DNA of 64,000 nt, from positions 93,484 to 157,483 of the IMG/VR virus record IMGVR_UViG_3300035520_001075; one strand, written 5' to 3'. The notes beneath the pieces were generated by a model. It saw only the letters and a list, made by a program, of their open reading frames with translations, was not told the origin of the DNA and ran no database searches. This stretch comes from a virus. Lineage: Duplodnaviria; Caudoviricetes. A program made the position numbers and the translations under genes. The stretch's first letter is position 1. Every line of letters starts with the position of its first letter. Shown here piece by piece: positions 12,586 through 39,445 of this stretch.

Positions 12586-15500
12586 ATGGCAATTAATACA
12601 AATGAAGCGGACCAGAATAAAAATAAAGATAAGATTACAACTATTTCTGGTGCGACAGAGTATGAAATTAATTCTGAAAAAGAAAAGAATGAAATTAATT
12701 CCTTGAGATTTAAGCAAAGCTATTATGCTTTTTTAGAACTACTTTCTGATTTATATCCAAATGCGTTGGGTGTAAAAATGCTTGGTGTAATTGGTGATAA
12801 TAGTCTTTTTGATTCAGATTCACAGTCGAATTTAGATGCTGAATATTTAGATTGGCTACTTGATGTAGACCACTTTATGAAGGGCGTTAGAAGCGATAGA
12901 AATATTTCGCCAGAAAAATTATTAAAATTATATCAAACAGCAATAGGGCTTTTCTTTGATTCAGACGATGCCGCACAATACTTACAAGATTTTGGCGATA
13001 CAAAAGTATCAGATACTAATGGTGGAAAAGTAATAAAGTATAACGGTAAGTCATATCTTCTTTCAGATATGGAAAGCCGCTATAGTGATATGAAAACGGC
13101 GAAAGATACAAGTGCAGAAAAAGAAGGTAAAGAAAAAAATTATTTTAATATTCCAGCATTAACAGAAATAAATGAAGCTTACACCGCAGTTGCAAAAATG
13201 TTTGACTTTAATGGAGATAACTTAATAGGCACAGACGATGCCGTAATTGCTCTCAAGTTTTTTGCTATTGACTTAACAGACGCAGAAAGAGCTTCTTCTA
13301 TAAAAACGTATACTTATGATGTTTCTACAATTCAGTCAGCAGGAGGCTTCGATGAGTGGCCAGCTTTAAGTCGTGATGGGTAGGATTTAAAAAATAGTGA
13401 TGGAAAGAGTTATTGTGTAATCTCGAAAGGAGAAGGAAAGGTTTATTTTTATAATTCTTCAACATATTATACAGAAGCTTCTGCAAGTAAAATTGCAGAA
13501 AAACTTAAAGCGAAAGAAACTGACTTTAGAAAACTTCAAGCTAAAGAGTATACAACAGGTACATCAGATTCAAATAAGGCTTTAGATAAGAACATATATT
13601 CTGCATTAACAAGACTCTCGTTCCCTACTGGAGGAAAAACTTATAATTCCAGATGGGCAGTATCCTTATTAAGAACAATTAAAAAAATAAATATTCATAA
13701 TAAGAAATCTTCATCAACACCTTATGTTTCCGTAGCTGAATTTGCGGCTTATTTATATCAGAATTCTGACGAATATATAAACTTATTAAAAGATACCAGC
13801 AATATTTGGAATGAAAATGGTGGAACAGAGGACGAAGAAATTAGCGAAGAAGGTTGGAACGAATCCATAAACAAATTATATGACTTAATTAAAGAATGGT
13901 GCTTAACCTATGGATTAACAAGTGATTTATATCATGATTCCTTTAAAGATTGGATAGACGGACTAAGAAGAGCAGATGCAAAAGGTACAGAAGCTAATTA
14001 CTATTTAGACCCAAGGCCATTAAAGAACGTCTTTGACCAAGTTTATACTCAGGCACGTGCTGATGAGATTAAGATGAATGTAGATAATATGGACTATACT
14101 AATCTTACAAAGGCTATTGCAGATGAGGTTGCTAATGGAAACGTAAGCACCGATACTTTAAAGGCTGTCGTTAATTTATTAATGCCAGAATATAAAAGAA
14201 GAGTTGAAGTAGAAGATTTGGATAAAAACTTCTGGGTAATTTCTCAGTTATTAAGTGCTATATTAAGCGTTCTTTTTGGCGATGATAATGGATTACAGGG
14301 AATTCTGAAAGGACAAATGGCGGAAACAATGGAACTTTGGAATAATGTAAAATATTTATGGAACGTCACCCAAATGTAGGCAAGAATGATTGATAATTTA
14401 GCTAAGTCGCTTGAAATTTTAAGTGGAGATGTTGACGAAGGCGATGATGCTTTTGAGATTTCTAAAGAAGTTTATCAATATACAGCAAAGGCAACAGATA
14501 CTTCTAATATTAATTCTGATGAGTGGACAGGCTGGGCGTTAGATTTAGATGGAGATGATTCAGTTTCTTGGTATGATGCTTGTTTGATTTTAAAACTTTA
14601 TGCCTGTTGGATTCTTTATCACAACGATGAAGATATAACATATACAGATTTAAATGGATATGAGCAAAAAATTTTCCCAAATATTATTAAGGTAACAGAA
14701 GGAGAAACCTTTAAGAGTTATCAAGATTTTATAAATTGGTCTAAAAAAAGTACATGGGGGCTTACTTTAAATTATGTAGAAGAAGGAGAATATAAAGACA
14801 GAGCATTAATGATAAAATGGAATTTTGATACAAAAACTACAACAAAGGATGGTACTTTACTTGGAACTTGGTTTTATCAAAAGATTTTTTCTAATTATGC
14901 CTATCCTTTAGATATCTAGAGTGGTATGTCATATGAGGAATTGGAGCTTTTCACCGGTGTGGGAGGCCTAACCGATACAGACACTGGAATGCCATTTTTT
15001 GGTTTTAATAATAAATATTTATTAGAAGATGAAAAAAATGGTCTTACTATTTGTTCTAATGTACGAAACGCATATCTATCTTGTGGCGGAACAGATGACA
15101 ATGCTACAGATAAAGAAAAATTTGCTTTCGTATTAAAACATTATGGAATGGATAATCGTTATTTTTCAGGCTTTTCTCAAACCGCCTATTGTGATAATGT
15201 ATTAGATAAATCTGATAAGTACATATTTTATTATATTGGAGGTAGAAATTATCAAAGATATGATGGATTAAATACTTACAAAGTGATGTCGGCAATAATA
15301 CTGAAAATGATGCAGGGTATAGCCACCTATTTCAAAGGAAGTTCAGACAGGACAGGAATTCTAAACTATGCCTTGTCGTCTATAGCTGGAAATGTTTCTT
15401 CCTTGTATTCTGATAATGTCAGCTTAGCTCTTCATAGAATAAATTATTATCCAGCAGGTCAAAAAGAAGAATTTGATGGAAATGATATTAATAAGGATAT

Positions 15501-16356
15501 TTATCGAGGAGAAAGAGCCTTAATAGTTCAATTTGCGAGTGACAGTACTGAAGAAGAATTAAAAGAGTCTGTAGTAAATTCCGAGCAAGGAATTGGTATT
15601 AAAAATACTTATTCAGAATGTTTTGGAAAAACCAGCGACGTAAAAGGGATTGGCGGTGCCAGATTAAGAACATCAATAAGCGGATGTGATGTTGCTATAT
15701 TTTTACAAGACGGAGACTATTATAAAGAAAATGACAGTATAAATGAACTTGGTATAAAACTTTATAAAAAATATCTTTTAGTTTGTATGCTATTGGCTAC
15801 AGAAGGTATCAGTACAGCAGATTCTCGACTTGCAGTCACCATATTACAAGTATTAAGTCAAAATACTCATTTATCTAATAAAAATTTCTGGAAGACTTTT
15901 AAAAACAATCAAAAGAATTTTTCTCTGAGTAATCAAAATATGGTAAAAGCGTGTACAATTAGTGGTACAAAATCTGATTTGTCCGATTTAACATATATAA
16001 TAGCCTTTAACTAGGAATATACTATAAACGAATATAAACTAACACTTTATTCGGAAGACGGAAAAACAATTTCACGAATAGAAGGCGAAAATAATAATCC
16101 TACTGCAACATATACTTCAGAAATGTTGTTTGAAACACTGACATATAATGGGAAAAAAATTTATCCAGGCTTTACAGGGGCATTAAATGGAGAATACCCA
16201 GAATATATGGTAGGAGGAGCATATAACTCTCGATATGTTTATGACTATTCATTAAGCGATTTTGCAGAAAAAACAATAGATAATACTTCTGGACAGAAAT
16301 ATAATGAGGCAGAACACAAAAGTTTCCATATTGTACAAACATCGTCTAACGGGTGA
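12586..16356 (+). CDS. Large protein, 1256 aa, with two dockerin-like Ca-loop/helix motifs; TAG at 13381, 14377, 14917 and 16012
   Basis: Five track ORFs are in one frame, separated only by TAG codons (checked codon by codon); ends in TGA. Confidence 0.8.
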
Positions 16357-21514: not shown

Positions 21515-22345
21515 ATGTTAGCAAAAAGATGGAATCAGAATGGAAAAGTTATAATTTTAAGTGAAACTACAGATGAACCAATTACTCTTGCTGGTGAAAT
21601 GGCAGGAAAATGTTGGGCAGCTGATACTGCTTCTCATGAAAAGAATTTTAAAAGAGGACTTGATTGCTTAAAAAGTGGTCATGGTCGAGTTTTAGAGTAT
21701 GCTCAAATTTATATGGAGATTAGCGGCTATTCAGCAAGAGTTATTAGAGAGTTTGAAAGACACATAGGCGGCAGCCCTACTTATCTTCAGGAATCAACAC
21801 GTTATGTTCTTGATGAGAATTTTGGTTTTATTACGCCGCCGTCCATTAAAAACAATAACGAGGCTAATACAGTTTATAATAATGTAATGAATACTATTGC
21901 TTATGGGATTGAGGAACTAAAGAAAAATGGCACTCCAAAAGAAGATATTAGCATGATGCTTCCTCTTGGAATGGAAACGAAAATAGTCCATAGAACTAAT
22001 CTAAGAAATTTAATAGATATGAGTAGAGTGAGATTATGTAGTCGAGCTTATTGGGAATATCGTCAGCTTATGAAAGATATTTTGGAGAGTCTTTCTATTT
22101 ATTCAGATGAGTGGGAATATTTAATTAAAGAGGAAAGAATTTTTAAGCCGAAATGTGAAGACGCAGGATATTGTAATGAGAAGTTTTCATGTGGTTATAT
22201 TAATAAAATACAGAAAGATAATAATAAATTAACCGAAGACCAAAAATAGCTTATCGAGTATGGAAAAGAACATCTGAATGAATATTGGTCGGTTTATCAT
22301 CTTAGATATGATGAGGAAACTGGAAAGATAGTAAAAGATGAATAA
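21515..22345 (+). CDS. thyX: FAD-dependent thymidylate synthase; TAG at 22247 gives a C-terminal extension
   Basis: GH..VLE, RH-x-SxRY (RHIGGSPTYLQESTRY), NLRNL, RLC.RAYWE. Readthrough ends at TAA abutting the next RBS. Confidence 0.9.
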
Positions 22346-27758: not shown

Positions 27759-27835
27759 ACTACTTTACTTTTTAAGAAAAATATGATATAATTATTATAG
27801 TAAAGATAAAAAAGAGTTTTATCTTTACTTTAGAT

Positions 27836-27966: not shown

Positions 27967-28106
27967 TGGCAGGTAGACGAATTGGTAAAGTCCTCGGTCG
28001 GCTTATAAAAAGTTTTGGCAGGGGCAGTACCTGCATAAGCCACCATCTAAAACCGAAGACGGAAGGGAGACCTTCCATAGGAGTTCGAAGCTCCTCCTGC
28101 CAGCCA
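27967..28106 (+). tRNA. Amber suppressor tRNA (CTA), interrupted by a 46-nt insert between positions 32 and 33
   Basis: TGGCAGG/CCTGCCA plus G-CCA; D-arm GAC..GTC; anticodon stem TCGGT/ACCGA with loop C|TCTAAA; long variable arm GGAAGG-GAGA-CCTTCC; T-arm AGGAG-TTCGAAG-CTCCT. Confidence 0.9.
28000..28045 (+). other. Nested mini-tRNA intervening sequence inside the suppressor anticodon loop
   Basis: GGCTTAT(7)-AAAAAGTTTTG-GCAGG-GGCAGTA-CCTGC-ATAAGCC-A-CCA: perfect acceptor stem, 5-bp/7-nt T-arm and ACCA end. Confidence 0.85.
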
Positions 28107-28133: not shown

Positions 28134-28793
28134 ATGAGAACATAGAAGTGTAATATTTGTGGAGAAGTTAAACCAATTGAAGATTTTTATTTTCGCAAAG
28201 ATTTAAACACATACCGAAAAAATTGTAAAGAATGCCATAACAGAGGTAGGTCTAAGAAAAATAAGAAAGGCGGCTCATGTGGAATTTACAAAATAGTCAA
28301 CAATATTAATCACAAAGTTTATATTGGACAGTCAATTAATATTGAAAAAAGAATTGCTAAACACCAAAGTATGGCAAAAAGCGGAGGTGAAATGCCGTTA
28401 TATTGTGATATTAGAAAGTATGGTGTTGAAAATTTCTCATTTGAAATTATTGAATTATGTGATAAAGATTCTTTAGATAAAAAAGAAAGAGAATATATAA
28501 TTCAATATCAAAGTTTAGTATCTCAAAATGGATATAACATTGATGAAGGTGGACAGAAAGGTCGAAATTATCACCCAGAAAGTGATGGAATGGCTAAATT
28601 AAACTGGGACATGGTTCATCAAATTAAACAGCAGCTAATAATAGGCACTCCAAAAAGAGAATTAGCTGAACAATTTGGCGTATCAGTTTATGCAATTGAT
28701 GATATAAATAGAGGTAAGTCTTGGAAAGAAGACGATTTAATATATCCAATTTATAGTTTTCAAAAACATAAGTCAAACAATCCAATTGTTTGA
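28134..28793 (+). CDS. Zn-finger + GIY-YIG endonuclease + C-terminal HTH, 219 aa, TAG at codon 4
   Basis: AAGGAG RBS. MRT[Q]KCNIC...CKEC...GIYKIVN..VYIGQS, in frame with track ORF 28371-28793. Confidence 0.8.
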
Positions 28794-29294: not shown

Positions 29295-29303
29295 CTAAGC
29301 TAA

Positions 29304-29407
29304 AAAGAGTAGTTAGTGTGATTTCCTTTGATTACGCATTCCTTTGTTAGTCTACATTTGTATTCCTCCAAGATATATACATGACACCATCGTACTAACT
29401 ACTCTTT
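29304..29407. ncRNA. Long stem-loop RNA element
   Basis: 14-bp perfect stem AAAGAGTAGTTAGT/ACTAACTACTCTTT, extendable to ~19 bp with G-U pairs. Confidence 0.4.
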
Positions 29408-29484
29408 ATATAAATAGAACAATAGTAGTTTGTTGTAAATATTGTTCGCTCACCGTTGGCGACTAATAAATATACGGTTTAAAT

Positions 29485-29552
29485 GCCATTATAGTGTAGT
29501 GGAAAGCACGGGAAATATTTCTATTGTGCCAGTTCGATTCTGGCTAATGGCA
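29485..29552 (+). ncRNA. tRNA-like RNA lacking an anticodon loop
   Basis: GCCATTA/TAATGGC acceptor, normal D-arm and T-arm (GCCAG-TTCGATT-CTGGC). Anticodon arm is only 12 nt (GGAAATATTTCT). No CCA. Confidence 0.7.
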
Positions 29553-29916
29553 AACTTAGGTCGGAGTCGCAGAAATTCCTTACCCTGTAGATAAAAGTTA
29601 AAAATATTCGGCGGCAAAATTTAGGAAGTTTTTATTTTGCTTCAAAGAAAAACACAAAGCTTTTGGTTTTTTGGTGATTAGTACTGGTTCACCTTTGCAG
29701 GTTCCTTAAAAAAATAAAAAACAGTACTACGGTGCGTATTCTGTATCAAATGCGTGAGTTTAGTTTCAACTCGGAGGGAAACTACTGAGGACGCTCAGGG
29801 TTATAGTACTATAATTTTCTCTAAAGATTCAGGTTTAGCTTCTGCAGAAGCCCTATCTAATCTTTAGAACTTTTAGTGTCGTGGCGAAAGGGCACTATAA
29901 AACTTCTTCGCCTCAT
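29553..29916 (+). ncRNA. Putative structured ncRNA between two tRNA-like elements
   Basis: No credible ORF. Stems: TAGTACTG/CAGTACTA, TAGTTTC/GAAACTA, CTGAG/CTCAG, TCTAAAGATT/AATCTTTAGA, TAGTGTC/GGCACTA, and long-range GAAGTTTT/AAAACTTC. Confidence 0.45.
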
Positions 29917-29990
29917 GACTCATTGGTCAAGTGGTTAAGACGCTATCATTTATGATAGAATCACGGGTTCGTTCCCCGTATGAGTTTCCA
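29917..29990 (+). ncRNA. tRNA-like RNA (Glu-like body) with an aberrant 6-nt anticodon loop
   Basis: GACTCAT/ATGAGTT plus T-CCA; D-arm GTCAAGTGGTTAAGAC; anticodon arm CTATC-ATTTAT-GATAG; T-arm ACGGG-TTCGTTC-CCCGT. Confidence 0.7.
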
Positions 29991-30170: not shown

Positions 30171-30310
30171 GAAAGGAGAAGAAGTCAAGAATTGAGCTAA
30201 AAATTCTTGACTCTTTTTTTTATTTTAGATTATGGGGCGGACGATATTTGACTTTTAACTTGGGTTATGATATAATTATTATAGTAAGTTAAGAGAGGAG
30301 AAAAAAAGTT

Positions 30311-31378
30311 ATGAAACTTATTGAGTATATAGTAAATCATAAGGATTGGAAAAATGAATTACAGAAGCCGCCATATTCTTTGTCTATAAAAGAAAAAGGC
30401 TCATTAATTATGTTTAATTATACTGTTGATTCTATTCCTTCTGAAATCGTTAACGAAGCAAGGGGTTTAATTCTTGAAATTGGAAATAAGATTAATGTAA
30501 TTCGTTATGGCTTTTATCGCTTCTATAACTATGTTGAAGAAGGGGCGGCGGCTTTAAACATGAAGAAAGTCTTTGCAACAGAGAAAATAGATGGGTCAGT
30601 TATAATGCTTTATTATTATAAAGGAAACTGGTATATTTCAACTCGTAATACTTTCGATGCTTTCGATGCTCCACTTGGAAATTCAGAAAGAACTTTTGGA
30701 GATTTAGCTATTGAAGCAATGAAATCTCAGGGGATTATTCCTTCTCAGCTTTTGCCGCAGAACACTTATGTTTTTGAGTTAGTATCTCCAGAATATCAGC
30801 ACGTTGTTAATTATGAGGATACCAAGCTTTATTTCTTAATGGCAAGAAATAATAATACTTATAAAGAAGTCGACGTTAAAACTGACTGGTTAAGACCTCG
30901 CCGCATTGAAGTTTCTTCTTATGAGCAGATTATTAACTATGTTTCTACTTTTGATGGAAAAGAATTTGAGGGCGTTGTGCTTCAGGATAATTATAATAAT
31001 AGAGTTAAGGTTAAGAACTTAAAGTGGTTAAAGCTTCATAAACTACATAATAATGGAAATTTAACTGTAGAGGCAGCTCTTAACTTAGTTGATATGGGTG
31101 AGATGGACGAATATTTAGCCTATTTCCCAGAGAAAAAAGACTTTGTTAATAGAATTCTATTTTGGAAGCAGACATCAATGTCTTATGCCTTATCTCTTGA
31201 TATGATAGACTTGAAAGAAAATTATCCTGATAGAAAAGATTATGCAGAAAAAGTGCTCAATTCCTACGCACCTCATGAGCAGTTTTTAATGTTTAAAGCA
31301 TATGATAATAGAGCTTATGAGTATATGACTTCACTATCTAATAAAAAATTAGCAGAATTATATGCAATTGAGCATTGA
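30311..31378 (+). CDS. T4 Rnl1-like ATP-dependent RNA ligase
   Basis: EARGLI, RFYN, motif I EKIDGS, FELVSP, EGVV, KVK. Confidence 0.85.
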   Translation: MKLIEYIVNHKDWKNELQKPPYSLSIKEKGSLIMFNYTVDSIPSEIVNEARGLILEIGNKINVIRYGFYRFYNYVEEGAAALNMKKVFATEKIDGSVIMLYYYKGNWYISTRNTFDAFDAPLGNSERTFGDLAIEAMKSQGIIPSQLLPQNTYVFELVSPEYQHVVNYEDTKLYFLMARNNNTYKEVDVKTDWLRPRRIEVSSYEQIINYVSTFDGKEFEGVVLQDNYNNRVKVKNLKWLKLHKLHNNGNLTVEAALNLVDMGEMDEYLAYFPEKKDFVNRILFWKQTSMSYALSLDMIDLKENYPDRKDYAEKVLNSYAPHEQFLMFKAYDNRAYEYMTSLSNKKLAELYAIEH

Positions 31379-31446
31379 ACAATATTTGACTTTTATCTCG
31401 GATTATGATATAATTATTATAGTAAATGAGAAAGAGAGGTTTATTT

Positions 31447-32331
31447 ATGGCTACATTATTTTTAATGATAGGATTGCCTTACTCAGGAAAATCAACACTC
31501 GCAGAATCCTACAAAAATTATAATAGAACAATGGTAATTTCTTCTGATGAAATTCGTAAGGAATTATTCGGAGACGCAGGCGACCAGTCTAATAACGAGC
31601 TTGTTTTTAAAGAATTCCATACACGAGTTGTCAATGGTTTGAAAATGGGATATAATGTTTTTGCAGATGCAACTAATTTAAATCGTAAGAAGAGAATGGC
31701 TTTCTTGGGCTCAATGCCAAAAGGAACTTTTAAAGTTGGAGTTATGATGGCAACACCTTTAGAGTTAATTTTTGAGCGTATGGAGAAGAGAGAAAGAAGA
31801 GTTTCTAAAGAAGTCGTTATGAGAATGCTGAAACAATTTCAGCCGCCGACTGAAGGAGAGGGCTTTGACTTAATTAATATCGAATTAAATCGCCCTTTTC
31901 ATTCTTTAGAAAATTACTTAGAATTAAATTTAATTCCTCATGATAACCCTCATCACAAGCTTGATGTTGCTGAACATATGTTGGCGACTTCTAACTTAAT
32001 TAAAGAGTGGTTGGAGGGAGATTCTTACGACAAAAGAAAAAACAATTTAATGACCGCCGCACGTTATCATGATATTGGGAAATACTTGGTAAAGGAATTT
32101 GATGACAAAGGAATTGCTCATTACTACTATCATGCCAACGTGTCTGCTTACTTATACTTAACTGCAGAGCGTTTCTCTCGTCAGGAAGACGTAATCTATA
32201 GAGCTAACTTAATTTACGAGCACATGACACCTTTTAACTCGAACTTCCCACCAAAGAGAATGTCGATTTATCCAAAAGAATTTATTGAAGACTTATTACT
32301 TTTACATAAGGCAGATGTTCAGTCTGCCTAA
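31447..32331 (+). CDS. Polynucleotide kinase (AAA_33) fused to an HD phosphohydrolase
   Basis: GLPYSGKST, SSDEIR, DATN..R; HDNPHH...EH...HDIGK...HA..SA...EH...AD. Confidence 0.85.
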   Translation: MATLFLMIGLPYSGKSTLAESYKNYNRTMVISSDEIRKELFGDAGDQSNNELVFKEFHTRVVNGLKMGYNVFADATNLNRKKRMAFLGSMPKGTFKVGVMMATPLELIFERMEKRERRVSKEVVMRMLKQFQPPTEGEGFDLINIELNRPFHSLENYLELNLIPHDNPHHKLDVAEHMLATSNLIKEWLEGDSYDKRKNNLMTAARYHDIGKYLVKEFDDKGIAHYYYHANVSAYLYLTAERFSRQEDVIYRANLIYEHMTPFNSNFPPKRMSIYPKEFIEDLLLLHKADVQSA

Positions 32332-32345
32332 GAAATGGAGAATAT

Positions 32346-33050
32346 ATGGAATTAAGTAATGAAAAATATAATCCAGAAGAAATTAAAGCAATTTTAGAAA
32401 TAATGCTTGGAGATGATGTTGAAGGAATTTTTGTAGCACAGGAATTATTAGATGACAATGATGATGAAATGCCAATTTATTCTAACTGGACTACAGCCTA
32501 TGAAATTCAAGAAACCTATTGCTGTAAGATTAGCTGCGGCTGCACTAAGCTTGTGATTATTCCAAGAGATAAGGACTATGTAATTAAATTACCTATTACT
32601 CATATTTATGAGGACGAAGAGATTACAATGCAGTTAGACCAAGAAGAAGATATTTTTGCAGAAGAAAAAGCTTTATATGATAGCAGTACTGAAACACTTC
32701 AGAACTTCATTCTTCCAAACTATTATATCGGGGAGTATCAGGGCATACCAGTTTTTGTTCAAGAAAAAGCTGAATTTGATATAGCAACTCCGCTGTCAGA
32801 AAAAGTCTTAGTCTCAGACCAAATAGTCAGCTCTATTAGAGAAGAAACAGACTTCTATAGCTTTTCTGTTGCTTTTGTAAAAGATATGGTAAGATATTTT
32901 GGACAGATAGAGACAAAAGAATTAATTGGAGAACTTTTGGATTATGAAATTGTTGATTTACATCGTGGTAATTATGGCTACACTCTTGAAGGTAAACCAT
33001 GCTTAATTGATATTGGCGGCTACCGTGAAGATAGGTGGGCGGTTTATTAA
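32346..33050 (+). CDS. Protein kinase-like protein
   Basis: GCTKLV, YVIKLP, QE, DLHRGNYG and IDIG kinase subdomain motifs. Confidence 0.65.
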   Translation: MELSNEKYNPEEIKAILEIMLGDDVEGIFVAQELLDDNDDEMPIYSNWTTAYEIQETYCCKISCGCTKLVIIPRDKDYVIKLPITHIYEDEEITMQLDQEEDIFAEEKALYDSSTETLQNFILPNYYIGEYQGIPVFVQEKAEFDIATPLSEKVLVSDQIVSSIREETDFYSFSVAFVKDMVRYFGQIETKELIGELLDYEIVDLHRGNYGYTLEGKPCLIDIGGYREDRWAVY

Positions 33051-38527: not shown

Positions 38528-38746
38528 ATGAACCAGAATTGTTGGATATTAAGAGGTTGTAGGTATTCTAACGAGGTAGAAGAATCTGGTGCTCCTAAGG
38601 ATTTTCGCTATATCCTTGGAGTCTATGATTCTGAAAGATTAGGAGCCGCCGCACAAAAGAATTGGGAATCAAAAGGGGATTATGATTTCTATCGTTTAGA
38701 ATGTTGGCGAATTAGAACGGAGGGAGCATTGGAGTTTGAAATATGA
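38528..38746 (+). CDS. Hypothetical protein
   Basis: GAGG RBS. Confidence 0.6.
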   Translation: MNQNCWILRGCRYSNEVEESGAPKDFRYILGVYDSERLGAAAQKNWESKGDYDFYRLECWRIRTEGALEFEI

Positions 38747-38975
38747 TTACTTTTCGTTTACGAAGAACGAGTTAATTTTATATATTTATTTACTAAAGCA
38801 AAACAAAACTGAATTTGATTTAAGAACTTCTGACTTTATTAGTTTAGGAATGCCGAAGAATAGCTTCTACAATGGCAGAGACGGATTAATAAAAAGGGGA
38901 TATTTAAAGAAAAATTCTCAAAATCACTACTTCTTTGATGAGGGCGGCAGCCTTAATAAAGAAGAGGTGATTTAA
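38736..38975 (+). CDS. Small wHTH-like protein
   Basis: LYIYL...LGMPKNSFYNGRDGLIKRGYL. Confidence 0.55.
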   Translation: MKYDYFSFTKNELILYIYLLKQNKTEFDLRTSDFISLGMPKNSFYNGRDGLIKRGYLKKNSQNHYFFDEGGSLNKEEVI

Positions 38976-38977
38976 AA

Positions 38978-39445
38978 ATGAAAGATGATATGAAAATTGC
39001 CCTTAGAATCGATCGACCAGATTTTAAGGGCGAATTTATTATAGCTTATTTTTTTCATTGCTCACGATTATCAGAGAAAATAGAAAATTTATGTAAGTAG
39101 AAAAAGCTTAAGAAGAAAGATGATTACTACACTTTTGTAGATAGAACGTTCCTTGCAGAATTAATTCATCAGATAGTGAAAGACAGACAGTTAGACCCTA
39201 TTGGTGAAGATAGTATAACTTGGAATAGTAATAGCTATTTCAGAATGCTTAGCCGCAATGTAAGAAATTTAGCACTTATATTAGACTGGGTAGACCATAA
39301 AATAGACTTTAATACATTGGTAAAGAGATTGGTTGGGCTTACTGAGAAAGATATGTTTGTAGTTAATTTAATTACAAGTCAATTCTCAGAATTCGATTGG
39401 AGTGCTGGCACAATGAAGATTGCAATTTCCAGTATTGAGGATTAA
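38978..39445 (+). CDS. Hypothetical protein, 155 aa, TAG at 39098
   Basis: GAGGTGA RBS; in frame with track ORF 39176 apart from one TAG. Confidence 0.65.

Follow-up and report, generated by a model that had tools for sequence, protein, structure and literature searches.

Why a phage that reads TAG as an amino acid should carry an RNA ligase and a polynucleotide kinase shortly downstream of an interrupted suppressor tRNA gene is the question raised by the locus described here, which lies in a window of 64,000 nucleotides (the whole stretch of DNA analysed) from a complete phage genome of 157 kb with terminal repeats. TAG alone interrupts long plus-strand frames, such as 12586-16356, with 4 TAG in 1256 codons, and the sole tRNA(CUA) gene of the genome is the interrupted one. 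This gene, the proposed ligase substrate, was located by ARAGORN with the intron option at 27967-28106 on the plus strand and comprises exon 1 (27967-27999), an insert (28000-28045) and exon 2 (28046-28106), with an encoded CCA. The ligase gene starts 2,205 nt downstream of its end, in agreement with the approximately 2.2 kb given in the preliminary description. The acceptor end of the tRNA looks Gln-like (U1-A72, G2-C71, G3-C70, G73), but the 22-nt variable arm does not. The TAG of the ThyX gene proved uninformative as to which amino acid is inserted, because it falls in a C-terminal tail that is not conserved, and it might even serve as a stop.

The 46-nt insert on the plus strand (28000-28045), as read from the sequence, is itself tRNA-shaped, with a 7-bp acceptor (GGCTTAT/ATAAGCC) followed by an 11-nt linker, a T arm composed of a 5-bp stem (GCAGG/CCTGC) and a 7-nt loop (GGCAGTA), and the end A-CCA. 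The minimum-free-energy fold of 27967-28106 is a cloverleaf with an inserted hairpin (z = -3.8). Removal of the insert from the first base of its acceptor to its CCA restores a 7-nt anticodon loop, and the reconstituted arm, TCGGT-CTCTAAA-ACCGA, is identical in 15 uninterrupted phage tRNA(CUA) genes; the predicted junction of the spliced tRNA joins ...CCTCGGTC to TCTAAAACC..., giving a ligated product of 94 nt. The insert is too small for self-splicing. No Rfam family was found in 27967-28106, either at the gathering threshold or at E <= 5, and a group I or self-cleaving ribozyme core was rejected on the size of the insert and the lack of an Rfam match in or near the tRNA. No bulge-helix-bulge was found at the splice sites in the predicted fold, because each junction is situated at one end of the 7-bp helix, with 1 nt versus 10 nt of loop. 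The complete genome gave no match to EndA/TSEN (PF01974) with a search filter that is lossy, and no RtcB was found in it, so that EndA and RtcB were discarded as splicing enzymes by their absence from the phage; the Thg1-like, HD-ExoX and other neighbouring genes of relatives were dropped as candidates too, having no homologue in the window phage genome. Beside the interrupted gene, directly 3' of it, lies a GIY-YIG gene with a TAG at codon 4, and a free-standing tRNA-like gene lacking an anticodon loop is located at 29485-29552.

The identity of the first of the two enzymes, reported earlier as an Rnl1-like ligase, was confirmed. The open reading frame 30311-31378 on the plus strand (355 aa, stop TGA) matches the Pfam family RNA_lig_T4_1 (PF09511) at 7e-14 and 52.6 bits against a cut-off of 28.3, and a profile built from 33 homologues matches T4 Rnl1 (2C5U) at 1e-22 over positions 43-322 of 359, aligned to residues 44-335 of the 375-residue chain, including a part of the C-terminal tRNA-specificity domain. 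The nucleotidyltransferase motif I, KxDG, is represented by K92-I-D94-G95, with K92 as the adenylated lysine, and is invariant in the 33 homologues, as are E156, E220-G221 and K233-x-K235 of motifs III, IV and V. The frame is thus predicted to encode an intact Rnl1-type ATP-dependent RNA ligase, the only one returned when the complete genome was searched locally by profile.

The adjacent plus-strand frame 31426-32331 (301 aa, stop TAA) was likewise confirmed as a PNK/HD protein, Pnk-HD, in which an N-terminal P-loop 5'-OH polynucleotide kinase is combined with a C-terminal HD phosphoesterase, as follows from the matches to AAA_33 (1e-21) and HD (PF01966, 1.4e-7) and from that of the kinase domain to the Clostridium thermocellum Pnkp kinase 4gp7 (8.6e-10). 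The P-loop, the catalytic Asp (D41) and the lid arginines (R122/R124) of polynucleotide kinases are all present, and at least 90% of 35 homologues share G16, G21, K22, S39-S40-D41, R44 and R122/R124; the same degree of conservation was found for H177, H184, H215-D216, H232 and H236, which include the H...HD...H metal ligands of the HD domain. Both predicted active sites therefore appear intact, and the complete genome holds one Pnk. The next gene, 32346-33050 on the plus strand, encodes 234 aa with the motifs VIK, DLHxGN and FDYGG in a minimal protein-kinase-like fold (AlphaFold pLDDT 83; the Foldseek matches are all protein kinases, with weak TM-scores of 0.3-0.4). Its relatives were found by tblastn at 12 distinct related loci, in most of them directly 3' of the ligase; it was considered as the missing endonuclease and rejected on its protein-kinase motifs and fold and for not being kept across all insert-bearing genomes.

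The preliminary description further assigned to each of the two genes a strong promoter of its own and no in-frame TAG, and both observations hold, but neither distinguishes the pair. The predicted plus-strand promoters of the ligase (30248-30276) and of Pnk-HD (31386-31414) each consist of TTGACT, a 17-nt spacer and a TG-extended TATAAT (11/12 match), and that of the unit tRNA-Gln/tRNA(CUA)/GIY-YIG (27764-27792, plus strand) is of the ligase-promoter class. The sequence TGNTATAATWATTATAG occurs in about 30 exact copies between 20.9 and 47.2 kb, where 0.68 would be expected, and the promoters of the ligase, Pnk-HD and the tRNA cluster are all members of this class; it is a mark of a whole expression class and not of the ligase/Pnk pair. 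A terminator-like hairpin with a T run on the plus strand (30183-30212), its 11-bp stem followed by CTTTTTTTTA, adjoins the ligase promoter upstream and would set the ligase apart from the tRNA region. By a count from the list of open reading frames, TAG is borne by about 13 of the approximately 80 plus-strand genes of the window, about 84% being free of it, so that two TAG-free genes such as these (0 TAG in each) are expected by chance (roughly p = 0.7).

The interruption of the window tRNA is one case of a wider phenomenon. The same insert architecture, with covarying acceptor stems, was found in about 30 distinct phage tRNAs, the structural unit being a 7-bp acceptor, a T arm, N73 and CCA, of a length that exactly fits the restoration of a 7-nt loop; cutting at the first base of the acceptor and after CCA gives a 7-nt anticodon loop in all of them. 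The window insert belongs to this tRNA-shaped ("Lak-type") kind. Insert positions range from 32/33 to 36/37, and the inserts also occur in the Leu (UAA), Gln, Lys, Ile, Arg and Glu tRNAs, most being in ordinary sense tRNAs, so that they are not suppressor-specific; three independent tRNA(CUA) genes bear them (that of the window, L041:4928-5049 and one on L260). Among the scans used, the motif GGGGCAGYACC-N10-ACCA returned mostly chance matches and free-standing minihelices, with only 3 real inserts among the 120 matches listed, and the suffix ACCA-AAA gave at least 120 matches, while the suffix ACCA-T(N)TAAAA yielded a complete list of 29 loci with 22 real inserts. Searches of 50,697 phage records by blastn and tblastn gave distant matches only and no close cultured relative of the window phage.

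The co-occurrence of inserts with Rnl1 and Pnk, proposed earlier as a check, was followed in 15 insert-bearing viral records picked by the RNA motif alone, with their ligase content ignored. The ligase is present in 13 of the 15 (absent from G001 and G011) and Pnk also in 13 (absent from G004 and G011), these three records being fragments of 42-58% completeness; G014 had been taken for a ligase-free counter-example on a false negative of the Pfam search, its locus holding an Rnl1 at 58.5 bits. All seven records that are at least 92% complete contain both an ATP-dependent RNA ligase, of Rnl1 or Rnl5 type, and Pnk, and the insert-bearing relative without any RNA ligase, named beforehand as the case against the idea, was not found among them. 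The ligase usually lies within 3 kb of Pnk, and in at least 10 distinct phages the interrupted tRNA lies within 10 kb of an Rnl1 gene; no RtcB was found in ten insert-bearing records. The controls were six complete phages, each having 21-30 tRNAs, whose whole genomes were searched locally with profiles; they have no insert, and none of Rnl1, Rnl5 or Pnk-HD was found in them at E <= 10. The check was thus favourable, with both enzymes in 7/7 complete insert-bearing genomes and either in 0/6 controls, although part of this association may reflect lineage rather than function, because the insert-bearing phages may share ancestry and the controls are unrelated. An RNA ligase is always present in the complete genomes, but it is of Rnl1 type in some insert-bearing records and of Rnl5 type in others, and the ligase therefore cannot be orthologous throughout.

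As far as sequence comparison carries, the identities of the two enzymes, the build of the insert and the association of the two across genomes may be regarded as established. The presence of the ligase and Pnk in every complete insert-bearing genome checked suggests that they probably rejoin the tRNA, and we lean, with some reserve, towards the view that the pair is a phage RNA "heal and seal" pair in which, beyond classical repair, the ligase rejoins the halves of the sole amber-reading tRNA. Under this proposal, the precursor tRNA would be transcribed from an early-type host promoter, and the insert in the anticodon loop, which between the first acceptor base and the 3' CCA mimics a tRNA's top half, would be released by the endonucleases that process tRNA ends, presumably by RNase P at the 5' end and, just after CCA, by an activity like that of RNase Z or RNase E. 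The shape of the insert points to such tRNA-processing endonucleases and to 3'-OH and 5'-P ends. For RNase Z of the B. subtilis type, CCA is inhibitory. Such inhibition does not hold for every RNase Z, some RNase Zs cleave immediately behind an encoded CCA, and the CCA end can also be produced directly by RNase E (PMC7479834). The exons would stay base-paired, their ends in the anticodon loop probably being 3'-OH and 5'-P, which are the ends that Rnl1 needs, and sealing by the window ligase would give the loop C-U-CUA-A-A; only then would the TAG codons in the tail, lysis and nuclease genes be decodable. The part of Pnk-HD in splicing is uncertain, because tRNA-processing endonucleases leave 3'-OH/5'-P ends that require sealing only; were the 3' cut to leave 5'-OH and 2',3'-cyclic phosphate instead, Pnk-HD would heal these ends, and it would also repair nuclease damage. 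Pnk is nevertheless a more constant partner than the ligase, even though cutting by RNase P and RNase Z would make Pnk-HD unnecessary. The earlier suggestion that the two enzymes seal the suppressor halves is accordingly supported by the 7/7 co-occurrence as regards the ligase and left in doubt as regards healing by Pnk-HD.

It is unlikely, though to be taken seriously, that the two enzymes serve repair only, mending tRNAs, whether of the phage or of the host, after cleavage by the host's anticodon nucleases, in the way that T4 counters PrrC, while the insert is removed and the exons are joined by host enzymes or an unrecognised activity. Rnl1 and Pnk are the textbook pair for repair after anticodon nucleases, this being the established role of Rnl1 and Pnkp, and they occur in phages that lack inserts (T4). 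The ends healed by Pnk-HD, 5'-OH and cyclic phosphate, are those that toxin nucleases typically leave, unlike RNase P/Z, and the preprint on the Lak megaphages reads their RNA ligase as a repair enzyme (10.1101/356790). The genes for Thg1-like 5'-end repair and an RlaP-like nucleotidyltransferase that adjoin the pair in relatives suggest a general tRNA repair toolkit. However, repair alone leaves unexplained why a ligase, of two families, is found in all complete insert-bearing genomes and in none of the tRNA-rich controls, and some ligation is chemically required, while the phage encodes no other ligase. Classical repair may coexist with a role in splicing.

It is improbable that the interruption was selected as a timer of the code switch, so that TAG decoding waits for the phage ligase and the tail, lysis and nuclease genes are delayed. 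The three independent phage tRNA(CUA) genes with inserts, the TAG-free ligase and Pnk, and the early TAG of the GIY-YIG gene just 3' of the tRNA are consistent with it, but most inserts are in ordinary sense tRNAs, most genes are TAG-free anyway, and a TAG-containing gene, 38589-39445, lies inside the early-class region. Moreover, the tRNA precursor and the ligase share one promoter class, so that the delay could come only from ligase translation and splicing. That the interrupted tRNA gene is defunct or its transcript never spliced, with the insert as a selfish or decoy element and TAG read by other means, is very improbable, for although the free-standing tRNA-like gene at 29485-29552 suggests that tRNA-shaped RNAs may have roles of their own, the exons are intact, CCA is encoded, about 30 independent cases regain a loop of exactly 7 nt, the reconstituted arm is the same as in working-type suppressors of other phages, and this is the only CUA tRNA of a TAG-recoded complete genome.

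The splicing of tRNA by enzymes is a hallmark of the archaea and the eukaryotes, and bacteria and their viruses are, to our knowledge, thought to have self-splicing tRNA introns only; an enzyme-dependent route is not yet shown in them. Returning to the rejoining of the tRNA by the phage ligase, we put forward, more tentatively and as somewhat short of an even chance, the broader proposal that phages run a protein-dependent tRNA splicing in which the cell's nucleases for tRNA ends cut out the tRNA-shaped introns, an ATP-dependent RNA ligase of the phage seals and Pnk-HD heals where necessary; in the window phage, this would gate the sole amber-reading tRNA, so that the switch to TAG as a sense codon would depend on an early protein of the phage. 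If true, cutting of the RNase P/Z type with an Rnl1/Rnl5 ligase would be a third, independent solution to tRNA splicing, the widespread phage genes for RNA ligase and Pnk would have a housekeeping job beyond counter-defence, the "enigmatic" introns of the Lak megaphages reported in 2019 would be accounted for, and recoded phages would gain a controllable step in the genetic-code switch. A few purified enzymes and one 140-nt transcript would suffice for a direct test of the idea.

Among the known systems, the Lak megaphages have "enigmatic" tRNA introns, conserved inserts of short length, of which one "itself may encode a tRNA" (Devoto et al. 2019, PMC6784885), and their genomes have genes for an RNA ligase of T4 type, for a Thg1-like enzyme and for a CCA-adding enzyme (10.1101/356790); like the window phage, they thus combine tRNA genes bearing short inserts with a T4-type RNA ligase, but the authors offered no mechanism and took the ligase for a repair enzyme, and neither a ligase-intron link nor a co-occurrence test for Lak-type introns was found in the literature searched. 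The Pnk of Rhodothermus phage RM378 has the same layout as that of the window, an N-terminal kinase and a C-terminal HD domain, with distant similarity, and RNA ligase 1 of this phage is a weak tblastn match of the window ligase; this PNKP subfamily, with 5'-kinase and 3'-HD phosphohydrolase, is described in PMC1997131, which cites Blondal 2005, but no link to interrupted tRNAs is reported for RM378. The fungal and plant Trl1 system, in which tRNA exons separated by cuts in the anticodon loop are joined again by an ATP-dependent ligase together with a polynucleotide kinase and a phosphoesterase, corresponds to what is proposed for the window phage, which differs in lacking a bulge-helix-bulge and an EndA/TSEN homologue and in having a tRNA-shaped insert, a kind of insert whose position varies among tRNAs. 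T4 Rnl1 (gp63) is of the same family as the window ligase (2C5U, 1e-22) and has likewise a polynucleotide kinase-phosphatase partner, the phosphatase being a HAD-type domain in T4 and HD in the window Pnk. We know of no such inserts in the T4 tRNA genes. T4 Rnl1 and Pnkp mend tRNA-Lys cut by the host PrrC, and the breaks proposed for the window pair also lie in the anticodon loop; but in T4 the break is inflicted by the host, whereas in the window phage it would be programmed in its own precursor.

The phage genome, complete at 157,483 bp with terminal repeats and 31.6% G+C, the window being its last 64 kb, reads TAG as sense: long frames are interrupted by TAG alone, such as 12586-16356 with four TAG and neither TAA nor TGA in 1256 codons. 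About 13 of some 80 plus-strand genes in the window carry TAG. Since ARAGORN, with introns allowed, gave three tRNAs in the whole genome and a single CUA anticodon, the tRNA(CUA) at 27967-28106 (+) should be needed. This gene is interrupted by a 46-nt insert (28000-28045) composed of a 7-bp acceptor-like helix (GGCTTAT/ATAAGCC) with an 11-nt linker next to it, a stacked 5-bp T-arm-like helix (GCAGG/CCTGC) capped by the 7-nt loop GGCAGTA, and a 3' end A-CCA; by its sequence, the insert corresponds to the half of a tRNA made up of acceptor and T arm, from the first base through the 3' end. The minimum-free-energy fold of the precursor consists of the cloverleaf and the insert hairpin (z = -3.8), no ribozyme or intron model of Rfam matches the interrupted gene, and the arm left by removal of the insert, TCGGT-CTCTAAA-ACCGA, is identical in 15 uninterrupted phage tRNA(CUA) genes.

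Several neighbouring features are recorded in their own right. The GIY-YIG endonuclease gene 28136-28793 (+) starts 30 nt past the interrupted tRNA, has TAG as codon 4 and lacks its own promoter, so that its transcription and translation would both depend on the tRNA unit. A free-standing tRNA-like gene at 29485-29552 (+; 48.9 bits to the Rfam tRNA model), whose acceptor, D and T arms are normal and whose anticodon arm is reduced to a short stem lacking an anticodon loop (GGAAAUAUUUCU), is similar to the larger tRNA-shaped inserts of relatives. The tRNA gene 29917-29990 (+) encodes CCA, has an anticodon loop of just 6 nt (AUUUAU), given a 2-nt 'anticodon' by ARAGORN, and is kept in three near-identical viral contigs; about 600 nt between the tRNA genes (29300-29900, +) are ORF-free, with long-range pairing of AAAGAGTAGTTAGT and ACTAACTACTCTTT and no Rfam match. 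The single TAG of the ThyX gene 21515-22345 (+) is codon 254, downstream of the entire catalytic domain, and homologues stop around residue 235-240; this TAG may serve as a stop, leaky or conditional, and not as a sense codon within the gene.

The Rnl1-like ligase and PNK-HD named in the preliminary description were borne out by Pfam, by profile matches to T4 Rnl1 and C. thermocellum Pnkp and by conserved active sites. The ligase (30311-31378, +; 355 aa; Pfam RNA_lig_T4_1 at 7e-14) has 1,089 homologues, and a profile of 33 of them matched T4 Rnl1 (2C5U) at 1e-22 over nearly its full length, with the nucleotidyltransferase residues K92-x-D94-G95, E156, E220-G221 and K233-x-K235 invariant. Pnk-HD (31426-32331, +; 301 aa) fuses a P-loop kinase (AAA_33 at 1e-21, with an 8.6e-10 match to 4gp7, the kinase of C. 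thermocellum Pnkp) to an HD phosphoesterase, and its P-loop, D41, lid arginines and HD metal ligands are kept in 90% or more of the 35 homologues compared. It belongs to the kinase plus HD end-healing subfamily, of which the enzyme of phage RM378 was the first demonstration (PMC1997131). Judged by these profiles, both proteins are ordinary members of known families; searches of the complete genome gave no second ligase, second Pnk, RtcB or EndA, the EndA filter being lossy. The following ORF 32346-33050 (+) encodes a minimal protein-kinase-like protein (motifs VIK, DLHxGN, FDYGG) without a Pfam or PHROG family, whose relatives of ~230-270 aa (L016:11143-11871, L018:11179-12000, L041:11350-12144 and others) occupy 12 distinct related phage loci, mostly immediately 3' of the Rnl1 gene. 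Other RNA-repair-type genes stand near ligase/Pnk-HD in relatives (L004:12531-13331; L349:9652-10485; L350:2623-3450; L006-L008), encoding Thg1-like 3'-5' polymerase, RlaP-like nucleotidyltransferase, HD/ExoX-like and DUF2828/VWA (Ro/TROVE-like) proteins.

Inserts of this kind were sought around Rnl1 homologues 31-47% identical to the window ligase and by scanning 2.9 million viral contigs for RNA motifs; together the two routes yielded, among the matches listed, about 30 distinct insert-bearing tRNAs: Leu(UAA), Gln(UUG), Lys(UUU), Ile(UAU), Arg(UCU), Glu(UUC) and CUA. The common unit (7-bp acceptor, 5-bp T stem, 7-nt loop, N73, CCA) has exactly the length whose excision gives a 7-nt loop C-U-NNN-A-N; the insertion point ranges from 32/33 to 36/37, the insert acceptor stems covary freely, and a few inserts (L021, L025) are exceptions, lacking CCA and ending near the discriminator base. 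The insert-based reading alters several ARAGORN anticodon calls, giving a second interrupted CUA suppressor at L041:4928-5049 (also on L332; insert at 35/36, labelled Leu(CAA)) and a third on L260 (34/35, labelled Ser(CGA)). Many ARAGORN 'introns' of 65-170 nt were discarded as merged tandem tRNAs. Free-standing minihelices, ...GGAC-NNGGG-GGCAGTA-CCCNN-CNCCTCC-ACCA, reminiscent of the tmRNA acceptor piece, occur in many unrelated viral contigs (including L106, L112, L142, L157, L176, L206, L320 and L335), which by eye we take to be mostly aquatic; a promoter-like site often stands just before them, and they have the unusual GGCAGYA T loop in common with the inserts.

The co-occurrence check proposed in the preliminary description was made on 15 insert-bearing viral records (G001-G015), picked by RNA motif alone and queried for RNA ligases and the window Pnk-HD. 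An ATP-dependent RNA ligase was found in 13 of 15, namely Rnl1 in G003, G005 and G014, confirmed Rnl5-type (PHA02142 OB domain plus RNA_ligase domain) in G002, G006, G008 and G015, and a PF09414 match in the remainder; a Pnk homologue was also found in 13 (8 full-length Pnk-HD at 35-42% identity, 5 kinase-only). Only G011 (53% fragment) gave neither, while G001 (42% fragment) had no ligase match and G004 (58% fragment) no Pnk match. Ligase and Pnk lie within ~3 kb in 8 of the 11 records with both located, G006 being left out because its ligase is cut at the contig end; no RtcB was found in the ten insert-bearing records searched. G014 was rejected as a complete ligase-free genome, its Rnl1 (58.5 bits, L349:3909-5024), in the Pnk-HD neighbourhood, having been missed by the Pfam profile search (PF09511), so that absences from such a search need a second check. 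Therefore, six complete control phages (991 kb in total, 21-30 tRNAs each, no genuine insert) were downloaded whole and searched locally, with no Rnl1, Rnl5 or Pnk-HD at E <= 10, by profiles whose positive controls reached 1e-104 to 1e-219 and which would overlook very distant ligases or kinases. Both enzymes are thus present in 7/7 insert-bearing records at least 92% complete versus 0/6 controls (Fisher p ~6e-4, the controls being unrelated phages and the shared ancestry of the insert-bearers not removed), and it speaks against inheritance alone that the ligases come from two distinct families. The splicing role survives a co-occurrence test capable of overturning it.

What all inserts have in common, a 12-bp helix of acceptor and T stems, the T loop and an RCCA tail, is solely what tRNA-end-processing enzymes read. 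In the simplest model, RNase P would cut at the first base of the insert, and an activity of RNase Z or RNase E type, both behaviours being documented in some bacteria (PMC7479834), would cut directly after CCA. The phage ligase would then seal base-paired exons bearing 3'-OH and 5'-P ends. Such ends are used by Rnl1- and Rnl5-type ligases, and bacteria, to our knowledge, generally offer only RtcB, which requires the opposite end chemistry; this would explain why insert-bearers always bring their own ligase. The route leaves unexplained why Pnk is no less constant than the ligase: the 3' cutter may produce 5'-OH and cyclic-phosphate ends, or the two enzymes may co-travel because they carry out classical repair as well. 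Repair alone, the mending of anticodon-nuclease damage as in T4, we consider rather unlikely as the whole role; it would leave the co-occurrence with inserts unexplained. The sealing of a programmed break after excision of the tRNA-shaped intron is somewhat favoured as the ligase's job, a reading well motivated but unproven.

The strong promoters and TAG-free frames stressed in the preliminary description are real, and neither is distinctive. TTGACT-17-TGnTATAAT precedes both ligase and Pnk-HD (11/12 each), with a terminator-like hairpin upstream of the ligase promoter, but TGNTATAATWATTATAG, an extended -10 with a conserved downstream block, recurs in ~30 exact copies before small genes (20896-47166, +; 0.68 expected) as a very uniform class, one copy lying upstream of the tRNA-Gln/tRNA(CUA) unit; co-expression of ligase, Pnk and tRNA precursor is therefore expected. 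Its variant TATAATATATATAG occurs past 52 kb on both strands. Both enzyme genes contain no TAG, which is unremarkable where so few plus-strand genes have one. Delay of TAG decoding until ligase is made would follow automatically from splicing; the idea that selection acts on this delay, as a timer, is kept alive by three independently interrupted suppressors. No sign of such selection was seen: inserts lie mostly in sense tRNAs, the tRNA and ligase have a common promoter class, and TAG also occurs in some early-region genes.

Literature searches gave no published mechanism for such introns and no ligase-intron link. 'Enigmatic' introns, one perhaps itself tRNA-encoding, have been noted in the tRNAs of Lak megaphages, whose genomes also list a T4-type RNA ligase, interpreted as a repair enzyme (Devoto et al. 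2019). What is new here is the controlled co-occurrence test, the filling of one place by ligases of more than one family, and the setting in a suppressor tRNA.
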